Source: an uncultured Candidatus Rokubacteria bacterium (lineage in GTDB: Bacteria > Methylomirabilota > Methylomirabilia > Rokubacteriales > CSP1-6). From it: a DNA stretch of 64,000 bases. Below the pieces are notes generated by a model. That model saw nothing but the letters and a program-made list of their open reading frames with translations, searched no databases and was not told the DNA's origin. The stretch spans positions 1,728,001 through 1,792,000 of the forward strand of contig CAVYTA010000006.1 in the NCBI GenBank assembly GCA_963771355.1, given 5' to 3'. Below are positions 10,436-54,287 of this stretch, in pieces; within the stretch, counting starts at the first letter, position 1, and every line of letters begins with the position of its first letter. Both the position numbers and the translations under genes were made by a program.

Positions 10436-11898
10436 ATGGGCCTGCGGCTGCGTCTCTTCTTCGTCCTCATCGTCCCGCTGACCCTTCTGGTCGGTCTCTA
10501 CGCGGTGGTGCGCGTGCGCGATGAAGAGGCCCAGCTCCTCGCCGCCGAACAGCGCAATGCCTCGGTGGCGGCGCGCGCCATCCAGATCGCGGTGGAAAAC
10601 GCGGTGCGCGACCGGCAGCTGGCCGACATCCGGCGCCTGCTCTCCGAGCTCGTCAACCGCCAGGAGCAGATCGACCGCATCCGCATCTTCGACAAGTCCC
10701 TCGCCCCCACGCTCGGGTCGGAGCCGGGCGCGGTGGGCGGCCCGGTGGCGGCGGAGCGCATCCAGCGCGTGATCACGCAGGGACGCGCGGAGGTGGTAGC
10801 GGAGGAGGGCGGCAGCGGCGACACCTTTTCCTACCTGATGCCGCTGCGGGGGCACAAGGGCGAGATGGTGGGCGCCATCGAGATCCTCTTCACCTCGCCG
10901 GGGGCGAAGGAGAAGCGCGAGCGCGCCACCCGTGACGTCATCATCCGGCTGGGTCTCCTCGCGCTGGGGCTGGCGGGGCTCACCGCCCTGGTGCTCTCGC
11001 GCCAGGTCCTGCGGCCGCTGTCGCGCCTCACGCGCTCGATCCGCGCCCTCGGCGAGGGAGCGCCGGGGCCGCCCCTGCCGGTGCAGCGGCGCGACGAGCT
11101 GGGCGAGGTGGCGGAGGCATTCAACCGCATGGCCGAGCAGCTCGACGGCGCGGGCCAGCGCCTGCTCCTCGAGAGCGACCGCGCGCTCGAGCTCGAGCAC
11201 CAGCTCCGCCGCGCCGAGACGCTGGCGGTGGCGGGCAAGCTCACCTCCGGCATCGCGCACGAAGTGGGCACCCCGTTGAACATCATCTCGGGGCGCGCGG
11301 AGATACTCCTCAAGAGTCTCCCCGCCGATCATCCGGGTCGGCCGGACCTCGAGGTGATCGTGGGCCAGATCGACCGGATCTCCAACATCATCCGGTCGCT
11401 GCTCGACACCGTGCGCCAGCAGAAGCCGGAGATCCAGTCGGTGCCCATCCCGCCGCTGCTGCAGCGTCTGGTTCCGCTCCTCGACCACCTGGCGCGCCGG
11501 CGCGGCGTCACCATCGCCGCCAAGGCGGGGGAGCCCCTGCCCGATGTGGCCGCCGATCCCAATCAGGTGCAGCAGGTGCTCATCAATCTCCTGATGAATG
11601 CGCTCGAGGCCACGCCGCGGGGTGGCCGCATCTCGGTGGAGGCGTGGGCGTGTCCCAACGACGGCCGGCCCGGCGTGGCGGTGGCGGTGAGCGACACCGG
11701 CTCGGGCATTCCCAGCGAAGTGTTGCCCCGGGTCTTCGAGCCGTTCTTCACCACCAAGCCGCAGGGCCAGGGCACCGGGCTGGGCCTCTCCATCTGCCGG
11801 GACATCCTTCGTGAGCACGGAGGCACGCTCGCGGTGCAGAGCCGGAGCGGTCAGGGCGCCACCTTCACCGCCTGGATGCCGGTACACGAGGCGGCGGG

Positions 11899-39138: not shown

Positions 39139-40422
39139 TCACTCCTCCACCTCGAGGCCGTAGGCCGAGGCGAGGATGCGGATGGGGTGCTCGGCGGTAC
39201 GGCCGGTGCCTTGGTTGATCTGCAACGCGGCCAGCGGGCAGTCGGTAGCCACCCGATCGGGTCGCGCCGCCTCGATGTCCTTGAACAGCGGCTCGGCCAG
39301 CTTCATGGAGAGCTGGAAGTACTCTTTCTTCATGCCCCAGGTCCCGTCCACCGCGGAACAGCGCTCCACCGTCTCCACCTCGGCCCCGGTGAGCCGCAGC
39401 ACGTCGGCGGAGCGCGTGCCCATGTTCTGCGCCTTGAGATGGCAGGGCAGCTGATACGCGATCTTCCTCGGCGGCCGCGGGAAGCGCGTGTCCAGGCGCC
39501 CCTGCGCGTGAAGGCCGGACAGGTACTCGAAGAGGTCGCGGGTGTGGGCGGCCACGAGGTTCGCGTCCTCCGACCCGTCCAGCCACGGATACTCCTGCTT
39601 GAGCATGTAGGAGCAGGTGGGACCCGGCACCACGATCTCGCGCCCTTCCCGCACCGCCTGCGCGAGGCTCTGGGCATTGTCCGCGATGAGGGCCTTGGCC
39701 TCCTTGACCGCGCCCCCGTCGAGGTACGGCATGCCGCAGCAACGCTGCGCGGGCAGGGACACGTCCACGCCGTTCTTCTCCAGCACTGCCACCATCGCCT
39801 TGCCGGTGCCGGGGTCGTTGTATTCCACCGAGCACGTGGCGAAGAGCGCGACCTTCAAATTGGCCGGGGCCGCCAGCGGCGCCGGCACGGTCGGGCGGCG
39901 GCGCTGGTCGAACCACTTCGAGAACGTCTCGCGGTGGAAGCGAGGGAGCTGGCGACCCTTGTGGATGCCGACCACCGACTGCATCACCGCCCGGTTGGGC
40001 GGGAACTCGTTCATCCAGTTCGAGAGCGGGGCGGTCAGGCTGCCCAGCCGCCCCACCAGCTCGGTATTGCCGAGGAAGCGGTCCTGCAGGGTGACGCCCT
40101 GCGCCCGCGCCTCCGCCGAGCGCGCGCGCAGCATGAGGCGGGGGAAATCTACCTGCCACCGGTGCGGCGGAGTGTACGGGCAGTGGTTGTAGCAGAGCTT
40201 GCACTGGTAGCAGAGATCCACCACTTCCTTCACGTCGGCGGCGGAAAGCTTCTCCACGTCCCCGTCCACCGCGTCGACGTCCAGGCGGTCGAACATCACC
40301 TTGAACGACGGGCAGAGCGGCAAGCAGCGCCGGCAGCCGGCGCAGATGTCGTAGACGCGGCGCAGCTCGTGGTCCACCGCGTCCTGCTTCCAGAATTCCG
40401 GCTGCCTGATGTCGAGCGTCAT
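39139..40422 (-). CDS. Rubrerythrin-associated Fe-S oxidoreductase (GlpC/HdrD-like, CCG domains)
   Basis: CAGCRRCLPLC, CYQCKLCYNHC, CCGMP, PCH and TDCPLA motifs. Confidence 0.9.
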   Translation of the reverse strand: MTLDIRQPEFWKQDAVDHELRRVYDICAGCRRCLPLCPSFKVMFDRLDVDAVDGDVEKLSAADVKEVVDLCYQCKLCYNHCPYTPPHRWQVDFPRLMLRARSAEARAQGVTLQDRFLGNTELVGRLGSLTAPLSNWMNEFPPNRAVMQSVVGIHKGRQLPRFHRETFSKWFDQRRRPTVPAPLAAPANLKVALFATCSVEYNDPGTGKAMVAVLEKNGVDVSLPAQRCCGMPYLDGGAVKEAKALIADNAQSLAQAVREGREIVVPGPTCSYMLKQEYPWLDGSEDANLVAAHTRDLFEYLSGLHAQGRLDTRFPRPPRKIAYQLPCHLKAQNMGTRSADVLRLTGAEVETVERCSAVDGTWGMKKEYFQLSMKLAEPLFKDIEAARPDRVATDCPLAALQINQGTGRTAEHPIRILASAYGLEVEE

Positions 40423-40440
40423 CCGTTTGGCTCTCAGGTG

Positions 40441-40488
40441 AAGAAAGGGGCGGCGGGCCGGGCGCCCGGGGATCACGGCGCCCGGCCC
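40441..40488 (-). terminator. Intercistronic hairpin after rubrerythrin (terminator/stabiliser)
   Basis: 12-bp stem GGGCCGGGCGCC/GGCGCCCGGCCC (40455-40488), followed on the minus strand by ...CCCCTTTCTT. Confidence 0.5.
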
Positions 40489-40495
40489 GGCACGA

Positions 40496-40945
40496 TCAGA
40501 TCGCGTCGGCTGGATCTTTCCCGGCCACCTGCGTGAGACCCTTGGCGAAGCGGCCGGCGTGGGACTTCTCCGCCTTGGCCAGCGTCTCGAACCACTCCGC
40601 CAGCTCGGGGTAGCCTTCCTCGCGGGCGGTCTTGGCCATGCCGGGATACATCTGGGTGTACTCGTAGGTCTCGCCCGCCACCGCCGCCTTGAGATTCTTC
40701 TCCGTCTTGCCGATGGGCTCGCCGGTGGCAGGGTCCCCGACTTCCTTGATGAAGTCGAGATGCCCGAACGCATGACCCGTCTCCGCGTCGGCGGTGTCCT
40801 TGAACAGGCCCGCGATGTCCGGGAACCCTTCGATGTCGGCGACGCGGGCGAAGTAGAGGTAGCGCCGATTCGCCTGCGACTCTCCCGCGAAGGCCTCCTT
40901 GAGGTTCTCGTGGCTCTTGCTGCCCTTCAGGCTCTTCCCTGCCAT
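40496..40945 (-). CDS. rbr: Rubrerythrin (short form without rubredoxin domain)
   Basis: AFAGESQANRRYLYFA, ETGHA, GETYEYTQMYP and AEKSHA diiron ligands; RBS GAGGAG. Confidence 0.93.
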   Translation of the reverse strand: MAGKSLKGSKSHENLKEAFAGESQANRRYLYFARVADIEGFPDIAGLFKDTADAETGHAFGHLDFIKEVGDPATGEPIGKTEKNLKAAVAGETYEYTQMYPGMAKTAREEGYPELAEWFETLAKAEKSHAGRFAKGLTQVAGKDPADAI

Positions 40946-40986
40946 GGTGATTCTCCTCTCGCCCCCACGGTCGCCCGGAGGGCCGG

Positions 40987-41583
40987 TCAGGATGAACGAC
41001 GGGATCGCCCGTGCGGGGAGCGATCCGGCCCGCGCCGGGCCGGAGTCGGCCGGCAGGCGGGACAGCGGCCGAAGAACTCGATGCGGTGATGCGTGATGGT
41101 GAGCCCGGTGAGCGCGGCCACCCGGGCGGAGACGGCGCGGGTGGACGGATCGCAGAGGGGTCCGTCCACGTCCACGATGCGACCACAGCCGGTACACGTG
41201 AAGTGATGGTGCCGCTCGAGGTTCCCATCGAAGCGGGCGTGCGGTCCCGGCAGCTCGTGCACCAGCCCCTCCGCCACCAGCAGGCGCAGGTTGCGGTACA
41301 CCGTGCCCAGGCTCACCCGCGGCAGGCGCCGCCGCACCATGCGATGCACCGACTCCGCGGTGGGATGGGCCTCGGTGCCGCGCACCACCTCGAGGACGAT
41401 GCGGCGGGGCCCGGTGAGCCGCAGGCCCCGCGTGCGCAGCGAGCCCGCCGCGCTGGTATCGGGAGCGCGACCGGTGGTCGCCCCCCCGGCGGGGGTGGAC
41501 TTTTTTCTGGGAATCGTTCTCGGAATCATTTTCGGTTTAGAGATCATCTTCGCTTTAGAAGTCGGGCTCGTTTTAGGAATCAT
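40987..41583 (-). CDS. perR: Fur family regulator, PerR-like
   Basis: [23 protein letters not shown] and GRCPAC motifs; upstream of rubrerythrin. Confidence 0.85.
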
Positions 41584-41627
41584 TCTCAATTTGGCCCCAC
41601 CGTAGCCGGAGGCGCGGACCCTGTCAA
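41508..41627 (-). promoter_or_regulatory. perR promoter plus Fur/Per-box-like array
   Basis: TTGACA(41627)-17bp-TACGGT(41599); TTGAGAATGATTCCTAA covers the ATG, and degenerate copies continue into the CDS. Confidence 0.7.
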
Positions 41628-41692
41628 GCGCTTCGTGTTGCTCCCCGCGCGCGCCTTCCTGTAGACTGACGACCTCAGGAGGACCTGTTCGA

Positions 41693-44503
41693 ATGCCCCA
41701 ACCCCGGTGGCTCCGGATCGAGGGAGCCCGGCAGAACAATCTCAAGAACGTGTCCCTCGCCATCCCGCACGATGCGGTGACCGTGGTCACCGGCGTGTCG
41801 GGCTCCGGAAAATCCTCGCTCGCCTTCGACACGCTCTTCGCGGAAGGCCAGTGGCGGTACGTCGAGTCCCTGTCCACCTACGCCCGCATGTTCCTCGACC
41901 GGGTGGACCGGCCCGACGTGGACCGGATCGAGAACATCCGGCCCGCCATCGCGCTGGAGCAGAAGAACCCCGTGCGGACGGCCCGCTCCACGGTGGGCAC
42001 GGCCACCGAGCTCTACGACTACCTTCGCCTCCTCTTCGGCCGCATTGGGCGCGTCCACTGCCCGCGCTGCGGAAGCGAGGCGCGGAGCGACGCCGCCGAC
42101 ACGGTGACGGAGGCACTGGTGCGCGAGCACCCCGACGCGCGCGCCCTCGTGTGCTTCCCGCTGCCCGTCCCCGTCGGCGTGGACACGCAGGCGACCTATG
42201 CCGCGCTACTCCGCCGCGGCTTCGCGCGGGTCAAGGTCGCCGGGGAGGTCCGCGAGCTGGCCGACGCCGCCGGCCAGCCCGCCGCCCTGCCCGCGCCCGA
42301 GCCGGGGCAGCCTCTCCTGATCGTGCTGGACCGCGTGACGCTCGGCCGGGAGTCCCGGCGCCGGGTGGCGGAGTCCCTCGATGCCGCGCTGGCCGAAGGC
42401 GAGGGCCGGGCCGAGGTGGACGTGCTCGGCCGGGCGGTGATCTCGGTCAGCCGCGAGTACCGGTGCCCCAGCTGCGAGACTCCACTCACCCGGCCGCAGC
42501 CGCTCCTCTTCTCGTTCAATCACCCGGTGGGGGCCTGCCCCGAGTGCAAGGGCTTCGGCAATATCCTGCGCTACGACGAGCGCCTGGTGGTGCCCGATCC
42601 CACCCGGAGCCTCGCCGACGGGGCGGTGGAGCCCTGGACCCATCCGTCGGGGCGCTGGTACCAGAAGCAGCTCCTCAAGGCGGCCAAGAAGCGCGGGGTG
42701 GACCTGAGCCGGCCGTATGCCGAGCTCCCCAGCGCCGACCGCGAGTGGGTGTACGCGGGCGCCGACGGCTATGGCGGGATCCAGGGATTCTTCGAGGAGG
42801 TGGAGTCGTACCGTTACAAGCTCCACGTGCGCGTGTTTCTCTCGCGCTACCGCACCCAGTCGCGCTGTCCGCGCTGCGAGGGCACGCGGCTCAAGCCGGA
42901 GGCGCTGTCGGTCAAGGTGGGCGGCGCCACCATCGCCGAGCTCTGTGACCGGACCATCGAGGACCTGGCCGCCTTCGTCGAGGACCTCCGCCTCGGCAGC
43001 CTCGAGGCGGCGGTGGCGCGCGACGTCCTCCGCCTTCTCCGCGCCAAGCTGTCCTTCCTGCTGCGCGTGGGCCTGGGCTACATCACGCTCGGGCGCCAGA
43101 CGCGGACGCTCTCCGGGGGCGAGGCCCAGCGCATCAACCTGGCCAATCAGCTCGGCGCCCAGCTGGTGGGAACGCTCTACATCCTGGACGAGCCCTCCAT
43201 CGGGCTCCACGCCCGCGACACCTCGCGTCTGGCCGAGCTCTGCGGCGAGCTGGCCGCCGCCGGCAACACCGTGGTGGTGGTCGAGCACGACCGCTCGTTC
43301 ATCCAGGCGGCCGACTACGTGGTGGAGATGGGCCCCGGCTCGGGCGATCGCGGGGGGACCGTCACCTTCGCGGGGAACCAGGCAGAGTTCGCGCGCGACC
43401 CGCACTCCCTCACCGCCCGCTACCTCAGCGGTCGCGAGGGTATCCCGCTGCCCATCACCCGGCGCGAGGGCCGGCGGGCCCTCGTGGTGCGCGGCGCTCG
43501 GGCCCACAACCTCAAGGACGTCACCCTCCGCATCCCGCTCCACACCCTCACCTGCGTGTCCGGCGTGTCCGGATCCGGCAAGTCCACCCTCGTGCACGAG
43601 ACGCTCTATCGCGCGGTGGCCCGGCACTTCAAGGCGGACTTCAAGACTCCCGGCGAGCACGACGAGGTGCGTGGGCTGGAGTACCTCAAGGGCGTGCGCC
43701 TCATCGATCAGGAGCCCATCGGCCGCACGCCCCGGTCCAACCCGGTCACCTATGTGAAGATCTTCGACGAGATCCGGAAGCTCTTCGCGGCGCTGCCACG
43801 GGCGCGGACGCTGGGCCTCGGCGCGGGTGCCTTCTCCTTCAACGTGCCGGGCGGCCGTTGCGAGGCCTGCGAGGGCGGCGGGTTCCAGAAGCTCGAGATG
43901 TACTTCTTCGAGGACGTCTACGTGTCGTGTCCAGAGTGCGAGGGCCGCCGCTACCGGTCCGAGGTGCTCAAGGTCACCTACAAGGGCAAGGACATCAGCC
44001 AGGTCCTGCAGCTCACCGTGGACGAGTCAGTGGACTTCTTCGGAGCCCATACCGTGCTGGCCCGGCGCCTCAAGCTGCTGCAGGACGTGGGCCTGGGCTA
44101 TCTTCGCCTCGGCCAGCCCGCCACCACCCTCTCCGGCGGCGAGGCGCAGCGGCTGAAGATCGCGGCCGAGCTGGGGACGCGCCAGACCTCGGATCATCTG
44201 TACATCCTCGACGAGCCGACCACCGGCCTGCACCTCGACGACGTCAAGAAGCTGCTCGTGGTGCTCAGCCGCTTGGTCGACTCGGGCAACACCGTGATCG
44301 TAGTCGAGCATCACCTCGACGTCATCAAGTCCGCGGACTGGGTGGTGGATCTCGGGCCCGAGGGCGGCGGGGCCGGCGGCGCTATCATCGCCGAGGGCAC
44401 TCCGGAGCAGCTGGCCCAGGTGGACGGCTCCTACACCGGCAAGTTCCTCCGCGAGCTCCTTCCTCGACCCAACGGCAAGGGCGCCGGCGGGCGGATGGGA
44501 TGA
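41693..44503 (+). CDS. uvrA: Excinuclease ABC subunit A
   Basis: Two ABC modules ([10 protein letters not shown] and LSGGEAQR, each twice), FSFN motifs and zinc fingers. Confidence 0.95.
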
Positions 44504-47089: not shown

Positions 47090-48304
47090 ATGGCCGGGCT
47101 CAAGGACAAGTACTGCATCGTCGGCGTCGGTGAAACCGAGTACAGCCGCGAATCCCGCCGGAGCACGCGCGCGATGGCGGTGGAAGCGGTCCGGAAGGCC
47201 ATGGACGACGCCGGGCTCGCCTCCGCCCAGGTGGACGGGATGATGTCCTACCAGAGCGGCGACTCCACTCCCGCCCCCTGGGTCTCCGGCGACCTCGGCC
47301 TGCGGCTGAACTTCTACATGGACGTATTCGGCGGCGGCTCGTCCACCGAGGCGCTCGTCGGACTCGCCATCGGCGCCATCGAGGCGGGGATGTGCAACAC
47401 GGTGGCGCTGTTTCGCTCGATGAACGGCTATTCCGACTTCCGCATCGGAGGCACCGGGGCGCGCGCGGCCCAGCCGGTGCGCGGCCTGGACCTGGCGCAG
47501 GTGCCCTTCGGCATGCGGAGCGCGGGCCAGAACTTCGCGCCCACCTTCATGCGGCACATGTACGAGTACGGCACCACCTCGGAGCAGGTGGCGGCCGTGC
47601 GCGTGGCCCACAGCCGGCACGCCTCCCAGAACCCGAAGGCCTTCCTGAAGGACCGGGTGACGGTGGCGGACGTGGTGGGCTCGCGCTGGATCGTGAAGCC
47701 GCTGCACCTCCTCGACTGCTGCCTGGAGACGGACAACGCCACCGCCCTCATCGTCACCTCCACCGAGCGCGCGCGCGACCTCAAGCGGAAGCCCGCCCAC
47801 ATCATGGGCGTCGCCGGCCGCGTCAACAAGCCGCGCCTCGACTTCCACTGGGCGCACGGGCCGATCAGCCGCGTGGCCGGCTACTACGCCAAGGAGGTCG
47901 TGTTCGGCCAGGCCGGCATCGGGCCCGAGGACGTGGACGTCACCGGCTCCTACGACGCCTTCACCTTCACCACCATGCTCCAGCTCGAGGAGTACGGCTT
48001 CTGCAAGAAGGGCGAGGGCGGGGCCTACGTCTCGAGCGGAATCATCGAGCTGGGCGGCAAGCGGCCCAATAACACCTCCGGCGGGCATCTCTGCGAGGGT
48101 TACACCCACGGCATGAGCATGGTCATCGAGAACGTGCGCCAGCTGCGGGGCACCGTGGACGACTATTGCCCGGGAGCCGCCGACGGCAAGCACTCGTATG
48201 ACTACGCGCCGGGCAAGTGCCGGCAGGTCAAGGACGCGCGCATCACCATGAACCTCGGCTGGGCGATGCCCCCGACCGGCTCGGCCCTGATCCTCCACAC
48301 CTGA
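47090..48304 (+). CDS. SCP2/Ltp2-type thiolase-like protein
   Basis: IVGVGET, PLHLLDCCLETD, YDAFT and NTSGGHLCEGYTHG motifs. Confidence 0.88.
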   Translation: MAGLKDKYCIVGVGETEYSRESRRSTRAMAVEAVRKAMDDAGLASAQVDGMMSYQSGDSTPAPWVSGDLGLRLNFYMDVFGGGSSTEALVGLAIGAIEAGMCNTVALFRSMNGYSDFRIGGTGARAAQPVRGLDLAQVPFGMRSAGQNFAPTFMRHMYEYGTTSEQVAAVRVAHSRHASQNPKAFLKDRVTVADVVGSRWIVKPLHLLDCCLETDNATALIVTSTERARDLKRKPAHIMGVAGRVNKPRLDFHWAHGPISRVAGYYAKEVVFGQAGIGPEDVDVTGSYDAFTFTTMLQLEEYGFCKKGEGGAYVSSGIIELGGKRPNNTSGGHLCEGYTHGMSMVIENVRQLRGTVDDYCPGAADGKHSYDYAPGKCRQVKDARITMNLGWAMPPTGSALILHT

Positions 48305-48320
48305 GAGCGGAGATCGCCCC

Positions 48321-48827
48321 ATGGCCAACGTGGAATACCGCGGTATGAACCTGGTGATCCCCGAGAACGACTCGGAGTGGCGCGAGCACTTCAAGCTGGC
48401 CCGGCAGCGGCGGAAGCTTGTGCTCCGCAGGTGCACGAAGTGCGGGCTCATGCGCTATCCCCCCAGCCACGGCTGTCCCTGGTGCCCGTCGCTCGAGTGG
48501 AGCTGGCAGGACGTGTCAGGGGGCGGCCACATCTACTCCTACGAGGTGGTGCATCACGCCATCCAGCCCGGCTTCAAGGAGTGGACGCCCTACACGGTGG
48601 CCCTGGTGGAGCTCGACGAGCAGCGGGGCGCGCCCACGGCCGACGAGGCGCTCCGCATCATCGCCAATGTGGTCACGCGGGAGTTCCGGCCCGAGCCCGA
48701 GGCCAATGTCGCCATCGGCAAGCGGGTGCGTGTGGTCTTCCAGGACATCGGGGAGGACTGGGCCCTGCCCCAGGTGAGCCTCACCGACGAGCCGCCGGTG
48801 GGCCGGGTCTGGCGCTTCCCCGGGTAG
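48321..48827 (+). CDS. DUF35 zinc-ribbon/OB-fold protein
   Basis: CTKC..YPP..CPWC, IYSY and PYTVALVELDE motifs; adjacent to the thiolase-like gene. Confidence 0.88.
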   Translation: MANVEYRGMNLVIPENDSEWREHFKLARQRRKLVLRRCTKCGLMRYPPSHGCPWCPSLEWSWQDVSGGGHIYSYEVVHHAIQPGFKEWTPYTVALVELDEQRGAPTADEALRIIANVVTREFRPEPEANVAIGKRVRVVFQDIGEDWALPQVSLTDEPPVGRVWRFPG

Positions 48828-48870: not shown

Positions 48871-49395
48871 CTACCCCCGCGTCAGCCGGGCCACGATGGC
48901 CTCGAACGCCTTGTCCGCCAGGTCGCGCACCTCGTCCCGGGTGAGCGGCTGGATGGGGTGCTGCACCATCACCGTCTCGTAGTCGTCCGCGCCCAGCGCC
49001 GACGCCTGCGCCCGTGCCGCCCGCTGGAACTCCGTCGAGATGACGGTGGCGGTGGGGATCCCGTGGTCCTCGAAAAATACGCCGTCGTGCACACTGCACG
49101 TTGTGCAGGACCCTCAGTCGGCGAGGCCCTCGATGAGCACCTCCGTCTCCTCGAGGATCTTCTTGCGCAGGTCCTCCGGCGCCGGGCGCGCGAAGGTGGG
49201 CTTCTTGCGGCGATGGATCGCCTTGGGCCGGTGCCGCTCGCGCAGCAACTCCTCCACGCGGTCCAGCAGGTGGTCGCCCTTGGCCTTGGAGATGTCGAGC
49301 AGGGTGATCACCTTCCCGTCGAGGGAGTCGGGACGCGGGGCGCGGTGCCGGGGCACCGCCACGGAGTCGGTGGGATCCAGGAATTCGTCGCTCAT
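48871..49395 (-). CDS. UGSC-family selenoprotein (in-frame TGA = Sec at 49114-49116)
   Basis: ORFs 49114..49395 and 48871..49092 are in the same frame; the junction reads GAC TGA GGG TCC TGC ACA ACG TGC AGT GTG CAC GAC = D-U-G-S-C-T-T-C-S-V-H-D; 174 aa in total. Confidence 0.88.
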
Positions 49396-49403
49396 GTCGC
49401 CTC

Positions 49404-50459
49404 CTAGTCGGCCTCGATCTTGCGATGGACCATCCGCGACATCTTGGGAAACGTCCAGCCCGCCACCACCGCCGAGAAGCGGCCGGCGGTGCCGCCCGCC
49501 ACCACGAACTTGAGGTTGGCCGGCTCACGGAACTTGGCGATCAGCGTCTCCTCGGTGGCGGGGGCGGCGAACTTCGCCAGCACGTGGGCGGGCAGCCCCT
49601 CGCCGCCGTCCATGCCCGGGATGAGCGCGCGCACCGGCTTGCGCAGGCGCTCCCACAGGAAGGCGCGCATGCGGCCCCGGTCCCACCCGTCGGCGGCGAG
49701 CAGGCGCGCGTGCTCGGGCGAGAGCACGATCAGGGTATCGCCGTGGTGAGTGGACTTGTGATGGGAGATCACCGCCAGCGAGTGCGCGAGGGTGACGAGG
49801 AGGTCCTCGCCCGTGCGGCTCAGGTGGTCGTAGACGGTCTGCGGGGCCGCGCCGGCGAAGGCGCTGATCACGCTCTCCCCGGGCGCGAAGCCCGCCTCCA
49901 TCGAGAGCGGCGACCAGGGGCTCTCCTCCTCGTTCTCCGCGATGCAGTAAGTGAAGTAGCCTGGATGCGCGAGGGTGGACATGGTGATGCCGCCGGCGGC
50001 GGCCCCGCCCACGTTGCGTATGATGAGGCGCAGCGCCCGCCCGATGGTGGCGTTGGCGCGATGGCCGGGTCCGAACACCCCCGCTCCCGCGTTGAAGTCG
50101 AGCCGCTTGCGCACCGGGCCGTTCACGATGAAGAGCGGCGCCGCGCTGTTGGTGGTGGCGGCCACGCCGTGGAGGTCGAAGGCGTCGTCGCACATCGCTT
50201 CCACCCCGGCGATCACCACCGGCAGGTATTCGGGCCGGCAGCCCGCCATCACCGCGTTGACCGCGATCTTCTCCACGGTGGCGTGGCCGAAGTTGGGCGG
50301 GACGAGGGCGACCAGGCCATCGGCGGGGCGACCCGCGGCGGCCACCGCCGCCGCCACCCGCTCGCGGGTGGGCGGCACCACCGGCAGCCCGTCGGTCACC
50401 CCCCGCGCGTCGAGCGCCTCGAAGGGGTCATCGGCGGGGTCCACCTCGCGACCGCTCAC
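49404..50459 (-). CDS. Conserved uncharacterised protein ('TDGLPVVPPT' family), partner of the UGSC protein
   Basis: TDGLPVVPPT, ATVEKIAVNAVMAGC.PEY, RANATIGRALRL, AENEEESPW and VVAGG motifs. Confidence 0.85.
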   Translation of the reverse strand: MSGREVDPADDPFEALDARGVTDGLPVVPPTRERVAAAVAAAGRPADGLVALVPPNFGHATVEKIAVNAVMAGCRPEYLPVVIAGVEAMCDDAFDLHGVAATTNSAAPLFIVNGPVRKRLDFNAGAGVFGPGHRANATIGRALRLIIRNVGGAAAGGITMSTLAHPGYFTYCIAENEEESPWSPLSMEAGFAPGESVISAFAGAAPQTVYDHLSRTGEDLLVTLAHSLAVISHHKSTHHGDTLIVLSPEHARLLAADGWDRGRMRAFLWERLRKPVRALIPGMDGGEGLPAHVLAKFAAPATEETLIAKFREPANLKFVVAGGTAGRFSAVVAGWTFPKMSRMVHRKIEAD

Positions 50460-51106
50460 GACCGACAGGCGCGAAAATTCGCGTAGTCACCGGCAGCGCG
50501 ACTCTTGGTATCGTCGGCGTCGGTGAGGACGGCGATGCCCGCGAGCTTCGGGGTCTCGGCCTCCTTGAAGCGCGCGCGATACTCCTCGGCCACGTTGACA
50601 CGCTCCTCCACCCACTGACCCTTCGCGCCATTCCCGCTCCGGAGCACGCGCGCCTGCGTGAGCCCCGCGCTCGAGGTCAGCGTCGTTCCCACCGGCACCA
50701 CCGCGCTCCAGATGTACTTGAGCGACTTCAGGGACACGGAGGAGTGGGGCCACACCGCGTACACGGACAGCGCGCTGTCGTTGGTCTTGCTGTTGCGCTC
50801 GTCCGATCCCTTGGGATGCTCCCCCAGCCGCCAGGCCCAGGCGAGGATGGGGTAGGCGGCGTGGTCCCAGGGCTGCTCGCGGGCGGCCTGGATGCCGATG
50901 CCCTCGGAGACCGCCCTCAAGAATCGGCGCCCCCCTTCCTCGCGCACCGTGTAGACGCCGCGCCCGGAGTCCTTCCGCAGCTTCCAGTCGACCGGGAACT
51001 CGCCGACCTTGGAGCGCGAGAAGTCCTCGAGCACGATACAGTCGGCCGCCCGCGCGGAGGGAGCGGCGAGGAGGACGATGAGGCCGACGAGGACGAGGTA
51101 TCGCAT
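50456..51106 (-). CDS. DUF3047-like exported protein
   Basis: Signal peptide; YPILAWAW, SLKYIWS, WVEERVNV..Y and IAVLTDADDT motifs. Confidence 0.8.
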   Translation of the reverse strand: MRYLVLVGLIVLLAAPSARAADCIVLEDFSRSKVGEFPVDWKLRKDSGRGVYTVREEGGRRFLRAVSEGIGIQAAREQPWDHAAYPILAWAWRLGEHPKGSDERNSKTNDSALSVYAVWPHSSVSLKSLKYIWSAVVPVGTTLTSSAGLTQARVLRSGNGAKGQWVEERVNVAEEYRARFKEAETPKLAGIAVLTDADDTKSRAAGDYANFRACRS

Positions 51107-51111
51107 GTCCG

Positions 51112-52521
51112 CTACCGCCCTCGGCGCCACCACTGGTGGACGAGCTGGTCCACCACCTGGACGAGCTGCGCCACCGTGCGGCACTCCTTGACGATGTCGC
51201 ACGAGGGCGAGTAGAGCGGCATCACGCTGTCGCCGATGCCCCAGCCCCACTGTCCCTCGGGGTTGAGCCAGATGATGCCCTTCACGCGCTCGCGGATCTG
51301 GCGGATGGCCCAGGCCTGGGGATCGTTGTAGTTGTTGCGCGCATCCCCGAGGACCAGCACGGTCGTCTTGCGGTCCAGCGTGTCCAGCTCCGTGCGGACG
51401 AAGCGGTTGAAGGCATAGCCGAAGTCGGAGCGGCAGTGATAGTCCACCGGCGAGCCCTTGAGCGCCCACTCGATGGCCCGGTCCACCGGGTAGGTCTTGA
51501 AGGCCTGAGTGACCTCGGCGATCTCCGACACGAACACGTAGGAGCGCATCCGGGAGAAGCAGTCCTGGAGGCTCCACACCAGCTGGAGCATGAAGCGCGA
51601 CGCGTTGCGCACCGAATCGGACACGTCGCAGAGGGTGACGAGCTTGGGCTTCTCCCGGTGCCGGCGCCGGTAGCGTACCTCCATGGGGATGCCGCCATAC
51701 TGCAGGCTCTTCCGGATGGTCCGCCGCGAGTCGAGCCGCCCCTTCTCCTCCTGGCGCTGGCGGAGGGCGAGGGCGTCCTTGATCTTGCGCGCGAGCCGCG
51801 CCACCACCGCCTTCATCTGCGCCACCTCGTCCGGCGACAGCGCGAAGAGGGGCTTGTCGGTGAGGACCTCGCGGGTGAGCTTCTCGCCTTCACGGTAGGC
51901 CCGCCGCTCCAGCTCGCGCTCCACGTGCTGGCGGATCATGCGCCGGAAGGCTTCCAGGCGCAGGTCGAGATAGTTGCGGATGCGGGCGAGCTGGCCGGGA
52001 TCGAGCCCCTGCGCTTCCAGCATCTGCATGATGCGGGAGAGATCGCGCTCGATGGCCTCCCAGTCGAACTTGTCGTAGATGCGCCGGGAGAAGTAGCCGA
52101 TCTGGAGGAAGTACATGAGCCGCTCGAGCCCGGCCCCCTGCCCCTGGCCGCGGATCGCCATCTCCATCTCCGCGCCCTCGCCCTGGAGCATGAGCTCGGT
52201 CATCTCGTCCAGCTCGAGCCCGTCCTGGGCCATGAGCTTGTCGAGCATCTCGCGCATCTTCGGGTCCTCGGGCCCCAGGGCCTTCTTGAGCCCGGCCCCC
52301 AGCGCCTCGAGGTCGAGGAAGTAGAGGTCGAAGATGCGGTCGAAGGTCGGCAGGTCGCGGGCCTCCTTCACCAGGGTCGCGGCCAGCGCGGACTTGAAGG
52401 TCTCCCGCGTCTCGACGCCGATCTCGGTGGAGGCGGAGAGCGCGTCCATGGCCTCGCTGGTGGAGATGCGCAGCTCCGCCCGGCGCAGATCGCTGATGAA
52501 CTCCAGGATGCGTTGGTCCAT
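51112..52521 (-). CDS. VWA domain protein, CoxE-like
   Basis: MIDAS LCDVSDSV, LD.RRTIRKSL, VLGDARNN and WLNPE motifs. Confidence 0.9.
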   Translation of the reverse strand: MDQRILEFISDLRRAELRISTSEAMDALSASTEIGVETRETFKSALAATLVKEARDLPTFDRIFDLYFLDLEALGAGLKKALGPEDPKMREMLDKLMAQDGLELDEMTELMLQGEGAEMEMAIRGQGQGAGLERLMYFLQIGYFSRRIYDKFDWEAIERDLSRIMQMLEAQGLDPGQLARIRNYLDLRLEAFRRMIRQHVERELERRAYREGEKLTREVLTDKPLFALSPDEVAQMKAVVARLARKIKDALALRQRQEEKGRLDSRRTIRKSLQYGGIPMEVRYRRRHREKPKLVTLCDVSDSVRNASRFMLQLVWSLQDCFSRMRSYVFVSEIAEVTQAFKTYPVDRAIEWALKGSPVDYHCRSDFGYAFNRFVRTELDTLDRKTTVLVLGDARNNYNDPQAWAIRQIRERVKGIIWLNPEGQWGWGIGDSVMPLYSPSCDIVKECRTVAQLVQVVDQLVHQWWRRGR

Positions 52522-52574
52522 CTAGTAGCCTATGCGCGATTTATCATGGTTTGGCGGTTTGGCCTCTTCGCCCC

Positions 52575-52725
52575 GGGGGCTCATCGGGGCGGGGTCTCGA
52601 TGGGGAGCACCCGCGCGCGGGGGCTCATCGGGGCGTCGTTTCCACCTTGAACACTCGCGCGTGGGGGCTCATCGGGGCGTGGTCTCGATGGGAACTGTCG
52701 CGCCGCGCGGCGGGGGCTCATCGGG
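52575..52725. repeat. Four-copy direct repeat array, GGGGGCTCATCGGG(GCG), period 44/44/49 bp
   Basis: Copies start at 52575, 52619, 52663 and 52712; the intervening segments are partly similar to one another. Confidence 0.85.
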
Positions 52726-53272
52726 AGAAGGTCACCCAGGAGGACTTGAACACGTCCTCGTTGCCGTCGCGGCTGATGGGGTGGAGCCGGCCGTCCTCCA
52801 GTCGCAGGAGCCCGTGGAAGGACCCGCGGCACACGAAGTGGCTCATGCGGAACTTCCAGCCGAGCGAGCCGAGGGGGACCTCCTCGTCCAGCTCCACCGC
52901 CCGGGTCACGTCGGGGACGTCGCCGACCAGGTGCAGGACCCGCACCGGCCCCTCCGCGCAGCGCAGGCCGAGCACCACTTTGTAGGAGAGGCCCTGGCGG
53001 AACGTCTCCACCGTCATCTCGCCCGGGTGGAGGAGATGCGGCACCGCGTCCGGCATGGTGGCCCGGAAGAAGTCGCGCGGCGTCGGGTGGACGTAGTAGA
53101 AGTGCCAGCGGCCGGCGGCGGAGATCCAGAGCTTGGTGTACTCGCCCAGCGCGCCCGAGACGCAGCGGCCGCCCTCGATGAACACCGGCCCGGACGGCCC
53201 GAGCTCGGGGAGCCGGATGCGGGGCGCCGGAAACCAGAGCTCCCGGAACTCGGAAAGACCCGCCCACTCCAT
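52718..53272 (-). CDS. Hypothetical protein
   Basis: Lies between the MoxR and VWA genes on the same strand, 9 bp after the MoxR stop; globular-looking composition. Confidence 0.65.
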   Translation of the reverse strand: MEWAGLSEFRELWFPAPRIRLPELGPSGPVFIEGGRCVSGALGEYTKLWISAAGRWHFYYVHPTPRDFFRATMPDAVPHLLHPGEMTVETFRQGLSYKVVLGLRCAEGPVRVLHLVGDVPDVTRAVELDEEVPLGSLGWKFRMSHFVCRGSFHGLLRLEDGRLHPISRDGNEDVFKSSWVTFSR

Positions 53273-53281
53273 CGTCGCCGC

Positions 53282-54202
53282 CTACTTGACCGGCGCCTCG
53301 GCGAGCACCTTGTCCAGCGCGCCCCGCACCCGCTCGAGGTCCTTCTCGTGCTTGACGAGCATGGTCAGGGTGGACTCCACCAGCTCCCGGTCCAGCGAGT
53401 CCGCGTTCAAGATCACCAGCGAGCGCGCCCAGTCGAGGCTCTCCGACACGGACGGCGCCTTCCGGAGCTCCAGTCCGCGGATCTTGTTCACCACCCCGAC
53501 CACCGCCTGGGCCAGGCGCTCCGGAAGCTCCGGCACCTTGAGCCGGATGATGGCGAGCTCCTCGTCCGGGGGCGGAAAGTCGATGAAGAGATGGAGGCAC
53601 CGGCGCTTGAGGCCGTCCGACAGCTCGCGCGCGTTGTTCGAGGTGAGGACGACCAGCGGGATGTTGGTGGCCTTGATGGTGCCGAGCTCGGGCACGGAGA
53701 CCTGAAAATCCGAGAGGACCTCGAGCAAGAACGCCTCGAATTCCGGCTCGGCCTTGTCGATCTCGTCGACCAGCAGCACCACCGGATCCGTCGACTCGAT
53801 GGCCTGGAGCAGCGGCCGCGGAGACAGGAAGCGGTGGGAGAAGAAGGCGTCGTCCTGGCCGGAGATCTTGGCCACCGCGTCGGGCAGCGAGGGCGCGTCG
53901 GCGATCAGCTCGCCGATGCGATCGCGGAGGAGCTGGGTATACAGGAGCTGCTTGGCGTACTTCCACTCGTAGAGCGCCTTGCCCTCGTCGAGCCCCTCGT
54001 AACACTGGAGACGAATGAGCCGCCGGCCCGCGATGTCGGCCAGCGTCTTGGCCAGCTCCGTCTTCCCGACGCCCGCGGGCCCCTCGACCAGCACCGGCCG
54101 GCCCATCTTCGCCGCGAGGTACACGACGGTGCAGATGCGCCGGTTGGCGATGTAGCGGGCGTTCTTGAAGCTCTGCTGGACGTCCTCCACCGATCGGAAC
54201 AT
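53282..54202 (-). CDS. MoxR-family AAA+ ATPase (CoxD-like)
   Basis: EGPAGVGKTE, RLQCYEGLDE, LLVDEIDK, LTSN and LKRRC motifs; RBS AAGGAG before ATG 54202. Confidence 0.93.
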   Translation of the reverse strand: MFRSVEDVQQSFKNARYIANRRICTVVYLAAKMGRPVLVEGPAGVGKTELAKTLADIAGRRLIRLQCYEGLDEGKALYEWKYAKQLLYTQLLRDRIGELIADAPSLPDAVAKISGQDDAFFSHRFLSPRPLLQAIESTDPVVLLVDEIDKAEPEFEAFLLEVLSDFQVSVPELGTIKATNIPLVVLTSNNARELSDGLKRRCLHLFIDFPPPDEELAIIRLKVPELPERLAQAVVGVVNKIRGLELRKAPSVSESLDWARSLVILNADSLDRELVESTLTMLVKHEKDLERVRGALDKVLAEAPVK

Positions 54203-54287
54203 GGCGGCTCCTTGGAATGAATTGGCGTTCATCCTAGCATCACGGCGCGGGTTTGGCGAGCGGCCCGCGCGGTGGGACACTGAAGCC

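Follow-up and report, generated by a model that had tools for sequence, protein, structure and literature searches.

The stretch of DNA analysed here (64,000 nucleotides, hereafter the window) contains a 174-codon minus-strand frame, 49395-48871, interrupted by a single internal stop, a TGA at 49116-49114 lying within EGLAD-U-GSCTTCSVHDG. Mechanical ORF calling renders this frame as two pieces, 49114-49395 (93 aa) and 48871-49092 (73 aa), which a preliminary description of this DNA had joined, correctly as to the frame, into one hidden selenoprotein of oxidoreductase type. The locus raises the question of whether this TGA is read as selenocysteine (Sec), and of what kind of enzyme would result. 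The features considered are the following:

48871..49395, minus strand: UGSC-family selenoprotein gene, 174 aa, with U94-G-S-C97-T-T-C100, assigned from family scores and an AlphaFold2 model.
49114..49116, minus strand: in-frame TGA, inferred Sec codon (U94), with TGA at 80/80 orthologous loci and 6/6 paralogues and Cys in 119/120 unsplit homologues.
49086..49100, minus strand: bacterial SECIS core CGUGCA-GUG-UGCACG, from invariant codons and compensatory changes, its G-starting loop 19 nt after the UGA.
49400..49405, minus strand: AGGAGG ribosome-binding site, predicted from the sequence, overlapping the TAG stop of the partner gene, with the ATG 4 nt further on.
49404..50459, minus strand: partner gene, 351 aa ("Unknown_1", Zhang and Gladyshev 2008), without Pfam or NCBIfam family and with no solved relative.
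50456..54280, minus strand: DUF3047, CoxE-like VWA, 184-aa unknown and MoxR-like AAA+ genes, upstream and co-oriented, probably context only.
47090..48827, plus strand: thiolase-like and ChsH2/DUF35 pair, convergent and downstream, the distance varying among relatives; probably context only.

Membership of the UGSC family, proposed from the motif, was confirmed by profile searches: the read-through product scored 165.3 bits against NF041046, "UGSC family (seleno)protein" (curated cut-off 125), and 174.4 bits against PF24696 (cut-off 25), with both halves co-linear over profile positions 2-171. The U/C-G-S-C motif is present at the Sec column of the family, for which Cys homologues exist. Of four DNA sequencing runs compared, two from different studies have contigs that bridge the TGA with zero differences, given that contigs drop rare variants and that one of the two runs may be the source sample. 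The TGA is neither a chance event nor a sequencing error, because the PF24696 alignment is co-linear, the codon is TGA at 80/80 orthologous loci and the contigs agree. Listings of the family go back to 2007 (PMC1976440). It was among the most abundant selenoproteins of the GOS survey with 255 sequences (PMC2398784) and is still described as uncharacterised in function in PMC13188914 and PMC9312934; no biochemical data on any of its members were encountered in the literature found. The gene of the window is a further member of this catalogued orphan family, and its gene call is an annotation correction, pipelines splitting the gene.

Conservation of the codon was examined at three depths. Within the genome, six PF24696 genes each carry one TGA, all at the same column. 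Among orthologues, for which the best 80 were taken from 103 relatives confirmed in GTDB genomes, every locus reads TGA followed by GSCTTCSV. Across the phylum, a PF24696 match was found in 124 of 151 genomes, including 93/93 other genomes of the same family, whose members have 2-13 matches per genome; among the 150 phylum matches listed (506 more are unlisted), every one has one TGA. Unsplit database homologues (the best 120 of 3,883, mostly from one clade) have Cys at the Sec column in 119 cases and Gly in one, and 16 UGSC-bearing plasmid loci of distant taxa have Cys in 12, a stop codon in two and neither in two. For one of the two plasmid loci with a stop codon, TGA was shown; selA and selB are close to the other. 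In public annotation, the plasmid UGSC genes with an in-frame stop of Acidovorax sp. T1 (L150:8715-9158) and Paracoccus ferrooxidans (L156:8734-9303; near selA and selB) are split or truncated. Only U94 and C97 are family-wide residues; C100 is limited to the orthologue clade of the window and a few others, its position being occupied by W or G in most other UGSC clades.

The selA, selB, selC and selD genes, predicted to lie elsewhere in the genome, were all found there above their cut-offs. This Rokubacteria-like genome (5.5 Mb, 99.8% complete), whose nearest named relatives are Rokubacteria/Methylomirabilota MAGs at 98% identity, encodes tRNA-Sec (selC) at C7:111447 (69.1 bits, cut-off 47; UCA anticodon, loop CUUCAAA), and profile searches located selA at C7:113232, selB at C7:114503 and selD at C4:225335. 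The selD gene (C4:225335-226252) lies inside an 817-codon open frame, behind an apparent FAD-oxidoreductase domain; it has a CGGC motif instead of Sec and resembles the Ndh-SelD fusion described in part of PMC2398784. For one Methylomirabilota MAG, 63 predicted selenoprotein genes are mentioned in a passage of a review (PMC13188914). In the window itself, the Rfam scan returned a tRNA-Met only and zero SECIS family matches; an ARAGORN call "tRNA-???" at 10962-11055, which is without Rfam support and looks coding, is not tRNA-Sec and is probably false.

The preliminary description had placed a hairpin immediately 3' of the TGA, in two alternative forms. Codons +5 to +11 (ACG TGC AGT GTG CAC GAC GGC) are invariant at 80/80 loci, synonymous sites included, while four-fold sites elsewhere vary freely, a count in which independence is overstated by the kinship of the loci. 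Of 105 distinct 45-nt sequences taken across the clades, a total that still includes 3 false pattern hits, 51 have C-G and 49 have G-C at pair 21-27, and in 100 GU opens the loop. The stem 15-22/26-33, evaluated on 20 representatives of 24 distinct cores after removal of 3 false hits and a divergent fused paralogue, was 86% paired and showed a covariation of 0.191 against 0.068 in shuffles (0/500 shuffles as high); slid controls did not exceed 0.083. The stem CGUGCA-GUG-UGCACG is the one retained for its covariation, a correction to that description, whose alternative CTGCAC-AAC-GTGCAG covaries at shuffle level (267/500). A further register, UGCACA/UGUGCA, seems unlikely: A15 varies in 27/80 orthologues, and this register is not kept in paralogues. 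The bSECIS model given in the Figure 2 legend of PMC13188914 specifies a loop of 3-9 nt that has G within its first two nucleotides, a stem of 4-16 bp, a distance of 16-37 nt from the UGA and an MFE of at most -7.5; the window hairpin fits it with a GUG loop, a 6-bp stem and a 19-nt spacing, its energy being borderline (the core by itself gives -7.4, and inclusion of the lower stem -10.1). Folding of the SECIS region gave energies not better than those of shuffles (z -0.83 to +0.48), and it is covariation instead that backs the SECIS. At nine metagenome loci with a Cys codon, the stem is lost in most.

The possibility that translation really stops at the TGA, or that this codon is a sequencing error, with the two ORFs as separate genes or a pseudogene, agrees with the splitting of the frame by standard gene calling, with database entries that are mostly N-terminal fragments of about 95 aa and with the unremarkable folding energy of the hairpin; it is nevertheless left with scarcely any probability, the TGA being conserved exactly at the Cys column, the Sec machinery complete, the hairpin covarying and independent contigs in agreement. 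Homologues continue past this column with Cys or TGA, the Sec machinery is present and contigs do not read TGC or TGT, so that none of the three outcomes which had been named in advance as contrary to recoding occurred. Judged from codon conservation, the Sec genes and hairpin covariation, the TGA at 49116-49114 is almost certainly read as selenocysteine through SelB-dependent insertion of Sec94, as had been proposed.

The second element of the locus, overlooked in the preliminary description, is the 351-aa partner, whose TAG stop is overlapped by the AGGAGG of the UGSC gene, an arrangement which suggests translational coupling of the two. A UGSC/Unknown_1 link has already been published, in the form of a fusion (PMC2398784, supplementary Figure S1A), and the partner matches the Unknown_1 alignment of that figure by eye (AVNAVMAGCRPEY...). 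The window differs from the published fusion of Zhang and Gladyshev (2008) in that the partner is a separate, apparently coupled gene, a fused paralogue being present in the same genome, and its UGSC clade adds a third Cys (UxxCxxC) to the protein described by those authors. The association is recurrent: the partner is adjacent to five of the six UGSC genes of the genome and fused to the sixth; where at least 1.1 kb of upstream DNA is available (73 orthologous loci), it is adjacent in 64, nearby or split in 6 and absent in 3; in other clades, 101 of 105 additional loci have it within 1.5-kb flanks, some places occurring twice in that set; and the pair is adjacent or fused at 16 of 17 distant plasmid loci. 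Among the best 150 partner representatives are 64 long proteins: PF24696 sequence is present in 35, a redoxin domain in 5 and a ferredoxin-thioredoxin reductase domain in 1, and 23 have no Pfam family. Taken together, gene order and fusion make it probable that the UGSC protein and the 351-aa partner form a two-subunit enzyme. The fused paralogue (C5:163680-165323) is a read-through protein of about 540 aa with its own in-frame TGA (in a U-S-T-C motif) and a different hairpin; about 7 kb upstream of it is a gene of the proline racemase family. Two of the eight partner copies of the genome (C6:2676276-2677253 and C5:215717-216673), 53-54% identical to the window partner, have no UGSC neighbour; these lone copies might use a UGSC subunit in trans.

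The partner family comprises 5,205 clusters at 50% identity. Residues D23, N136, R141 and E175 are near-invariant; C74 (140/146 representatives), R134 and C172 (131/149) are also conserved. Pfam and NCBIfam scans returned no family for it, and PDB sequence searches with the partner and its alignment returned no relative. Its structure model has a pLDDT of 95.1, and fold searches gave no chain at Z of at least 8 (best 5.3), which is not proof of a new fold; in the ESM Atlas, only unnamed clusters were retrieved, plus one with 16% UGSC. Below an E of 0.001, Foldseek gave a single match, to the alpha subunit of class I fumarate hydratase (E 3.8e-4, TM 0.29, rmsd 15.9), a weak match according to VIA-align (Z 3.8-4.4, rmsd >5; at Z 3.8, rmsd 5.2 over 189 aligned residues), and comparison with 25 PF05681 sequences showed no profile similarity (HHalign probability 0.1). 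HHalign against 23 GrdE-like sequences likewise gave a probability of 0.1, and no similarity to the GrdB profile was detected either.

The UGSC protein itself was modelled by AlphaFold2 from 73 sequences, with U given as C (pLDDT 94.7), as five strands alternating with five helices, U94 opening helix 95-110 after strand 86-92. The top Foldseek and VIA-align matches were flavodoxin-like/Rossmannoid (best natural Z 10.2, rmsd 3.4, 132 aligned residues), none standing clear of the others, and there was no thioredoxin-fold entry among the top fold matches listed; PDB sequence searches with the protein and its alignment returned nothing significant. A thioredoxin-like fold was assumed for the UGSC protein in the text of PMC2398784 that concerns it; the model indicates that the fold is likely flavodoxin-like rather than thioredoxin-like, which would correct this assumption.

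Profile comparison with the C-terminal domain of GrdB (GrdB-family sequences from relatives, 30 of which passed a length filter) gave an HHalign probability of 96.5 (E 8.5e-10, 94 columns, residues 73-172) with U aligned on U; the probability was 91.5 with every Cys masked and 1.2 with reversed sequences. In the other direction, one of two GrdB C-terminal fragments scanned against all NCBIfam models matched NF041046 (E 1.1e-4). By these profile alignments, the second, Sec-bearing half of the UGSC protein is a homologue of the GrdB/PrdB Sec domain, sharing with GrdB/F/H (TIGR01918) and PrdB the segment U-G-[ST]-C-T-x-C...FE..GIPT...HP. The UxxCxxC motif given for GrdB in a section of PMC13188914 equals that of the UGSC clade of the window, although C100 is not family-wide. 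The UGSC protein differs from GrdB/PrdB in its size (174 aa versus about 430, with homology over residues 73-172 only), in the absence of the PF07355 domain and in a partner that is not GrdE/PrdA-like. PF07355 has no match in the UGSC protein and is absent from the 25 families shown, of 26, for 73 family members; it has no match in the genome either, 139 of 201 phylum genomes having one. GrdA (PF04723) has no match in the 99.8%-complete genome, two positive-control relatives matching, and for GrdC-beta (NF040746) the best score in the genome is 23.6 bits against a cut-off of 450. The UGSC protein is thus a relative of GrdB/PrdB and not a member of that group, and works like GrdB at most. No statement of a UGSC-GrdB relationship was found in the open-access literature. 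Of the redox motif first described at this locus as a Sec analogue of CxxC, the U94 and C97 pair stands as family-wide, but the thioredoxin-type picture is probably wrong, the model being flavodoxin-like and GrdB/PrdB the nearest functional relatives; the product is a putative oxidoreductase. Two relatives (G051:C107 and G099:C89) have a GrdE/GrdB/GrdC-beta cluster no more than about 5 kb from a UGSC-partner pair, and in G051 grdA is nearby as well; many Rokubacteria GrdB-like genes have UxxS/GxxC in place of UxxCxxC.

Gene neighbourhoods were compared as well. Among close kin, MoxR, VWA and DUF3047 genes accompany the pair in 33, 31 and 29 of 50 cases, and thiolase and ChsH2 genes in 56 and 58 of 69; as functional partners they were rejected and treated as synteny, being annotated at 0/17 distant loci (17 of 24 partner-bearing plasmid records, 6 near-duplicates and 1 unannotated record being skipped). 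The MoxR/VWA pair of the window (51112-54280, with the gene for the 184-aa protein) scores below the MadB/MadC cut-offs. At the distant loci, annotation shows trxB in Arthrobacter (together with trxA), in Roseovarius and in Variovorax SRS16, which makes 3 of 17; a Pyr_redox_2 gene of 303-364 aa occurs at 3 more, TRAP/TTT/ABC solute-binding genes occur at 10 and CoA transferases at 6; these are raw counts without a background rate, several of the records being related haloarchaea. In the genome itself, dctPQM directly follows two of the six UGSC loci, and trxB was absent from the genes scanned at the window locus and the other five, the trxB of the genome lying elsewhere. Two UGSC-partner fusions (L189:7224-8909 and L190:7200-8924) lie beside aconitase X and DUF126 and have lost both redox residues, DMGT replacing CxxC, which means that the scaffold can exist without selenol or thiol; they are possibly a non-redox subfamily. 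A proline or hydroxyproline substrate, considered from the aconitase X neighbours and the proline racemase near the fused paralogue, was rejected, the neighbours being too inconsistent. A promoter and terminator scan of the locus was uninformative, and parts of the locus appear in contigs of four metatranscriptome libraries, from which neither transcription nor strand can be deduced. Elsewhere in the window, the minus strand at 39139-41877 has ORFs whose sequences suggest a Fur/PerR regulator, a rubrerythrin and an Fe-S oxidoreductase.

From these elements, the pair is proposed to be a GrdB/PrdB-like, thioredoxin-recycled two-subunit selenol reductase acting on an imported small organic compound, a reading drawn by analogy to which a probability of roughly 0.55 is attached. 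In a first step, virtually beyond doubt, SelB with Sec-tRNA would bind the hairpin whose GUG loop lies 19 nt past the UGA, leading to insertion of Sec94. In the folded protein as modelled, U94 would open helix 95-110 of a flavodoxin-like domain, the second half of this domain being the one homologous to the GrdB/PrdB Sec domain. The partner, judging from adjacency, fusion and coupling, would bind the UGSC protein and supply the substrate pocket. By analogy with GrdB/PrdB, the selenolate may then attack an activated carbon-heteroatom or S-S bond of the imported compound, after which C97 would resolve the adduct as a selenenyl-sulfide, to be re-reduced by thioredoxin and thioredoxin reductase; the GrdB/PrdB chemistry invoked here is taken in part from PMC13188914 and PMC10838667. 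Turnover would be PrdB-like, without acetyl phosphate, because the genome has no GrdA, GrdB or GrdC match. Paralogues probably differ in substrate. A precedent for such retargeting is the fluoroacetate reductase FarEB of Cloacibacillus, in which, according to PMC10838667, a GrdB-type selenol is predicted to cleave a non-amino-acid C-X bond, so that a GrdB-type Sec domain can be retargeted; in the same source FarEB uses a GrdE-like subunit and GrdA/GrdC, and neither of these turned up alongside the UGSC pair in this genome.

Several observations count against a reductase: the lack of trxB among the genes scanned at the six own loci, the restriction of GrdB homology to residues 73-172, a partner unrelated to GrdE, the Cys-less fusions beside aconitase X and the two of eight partner copies without a UGSC neighbour. 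The same pair could instead be a general thiol-disulfide or peroxide/sulfoxide-repair system, a real selenoprotein in which UxxC passes electrons to the partner cysteines but which is not catabolic. The UxxC motif, the kept C74 and C172 of the partner and its fusions to AhpC/redoxin and ferredoxin-thioredoxin reductase domains would suit this, and a redox role is the assumption made in the relevant part of PMC2398784; it is nonetheless judged unlikely, the best fold matches being flavodoxin-like, and 2-13 matches per genome, several beside dedicated importers and regulators, being a better fit to substrate-specific enzymes. Slightly less likely again is an enzyme that depends on a metal or performs no redox chemistry (lyase, hydratase or transferase), with catalytic residues on the partner and with Sec and Cys binding a metal or Fe-S cluster or acting as a transient nucleophile. 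To this would correspond the Cys-less fusions next to aconitase X/DUF126, the fumarate hydratase alpha match, the near-invariant D23, N136, R141 and E175 of the partner and the three closely spaced Sec/Cys residues of the window clade; set against it are the weakness of that match by VIA-align and its HHalign value of 0.1, a C100 that is not family-wide and the recurrence of trxB-like genes as neighbours.

Within the preferred reading of a selenol reductase, a broader and more tentative view, held as somewhat short of an even chance, is that UGSC and Unknown_1 add a third branch, in minimal form, to the selenol chemistry of the glycine and proline reductases: a reduced GrdB-type Sec domain, docked on its partner and recycled by thioredoxin, with which Rokubacteria (2-13 copies per genome) may reductively cleave different imported organics. 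At the level of the family, an abundant group of selenoproteins gains a testable unit, consisting of two genes plus Trx/TrxB, together with a mechanistic precedent in GrdB/PrdB and a likely fix of the published fold assumption. The 351-aa partner makes a good target for structure determination, and culturable organisms carry Cys versions.
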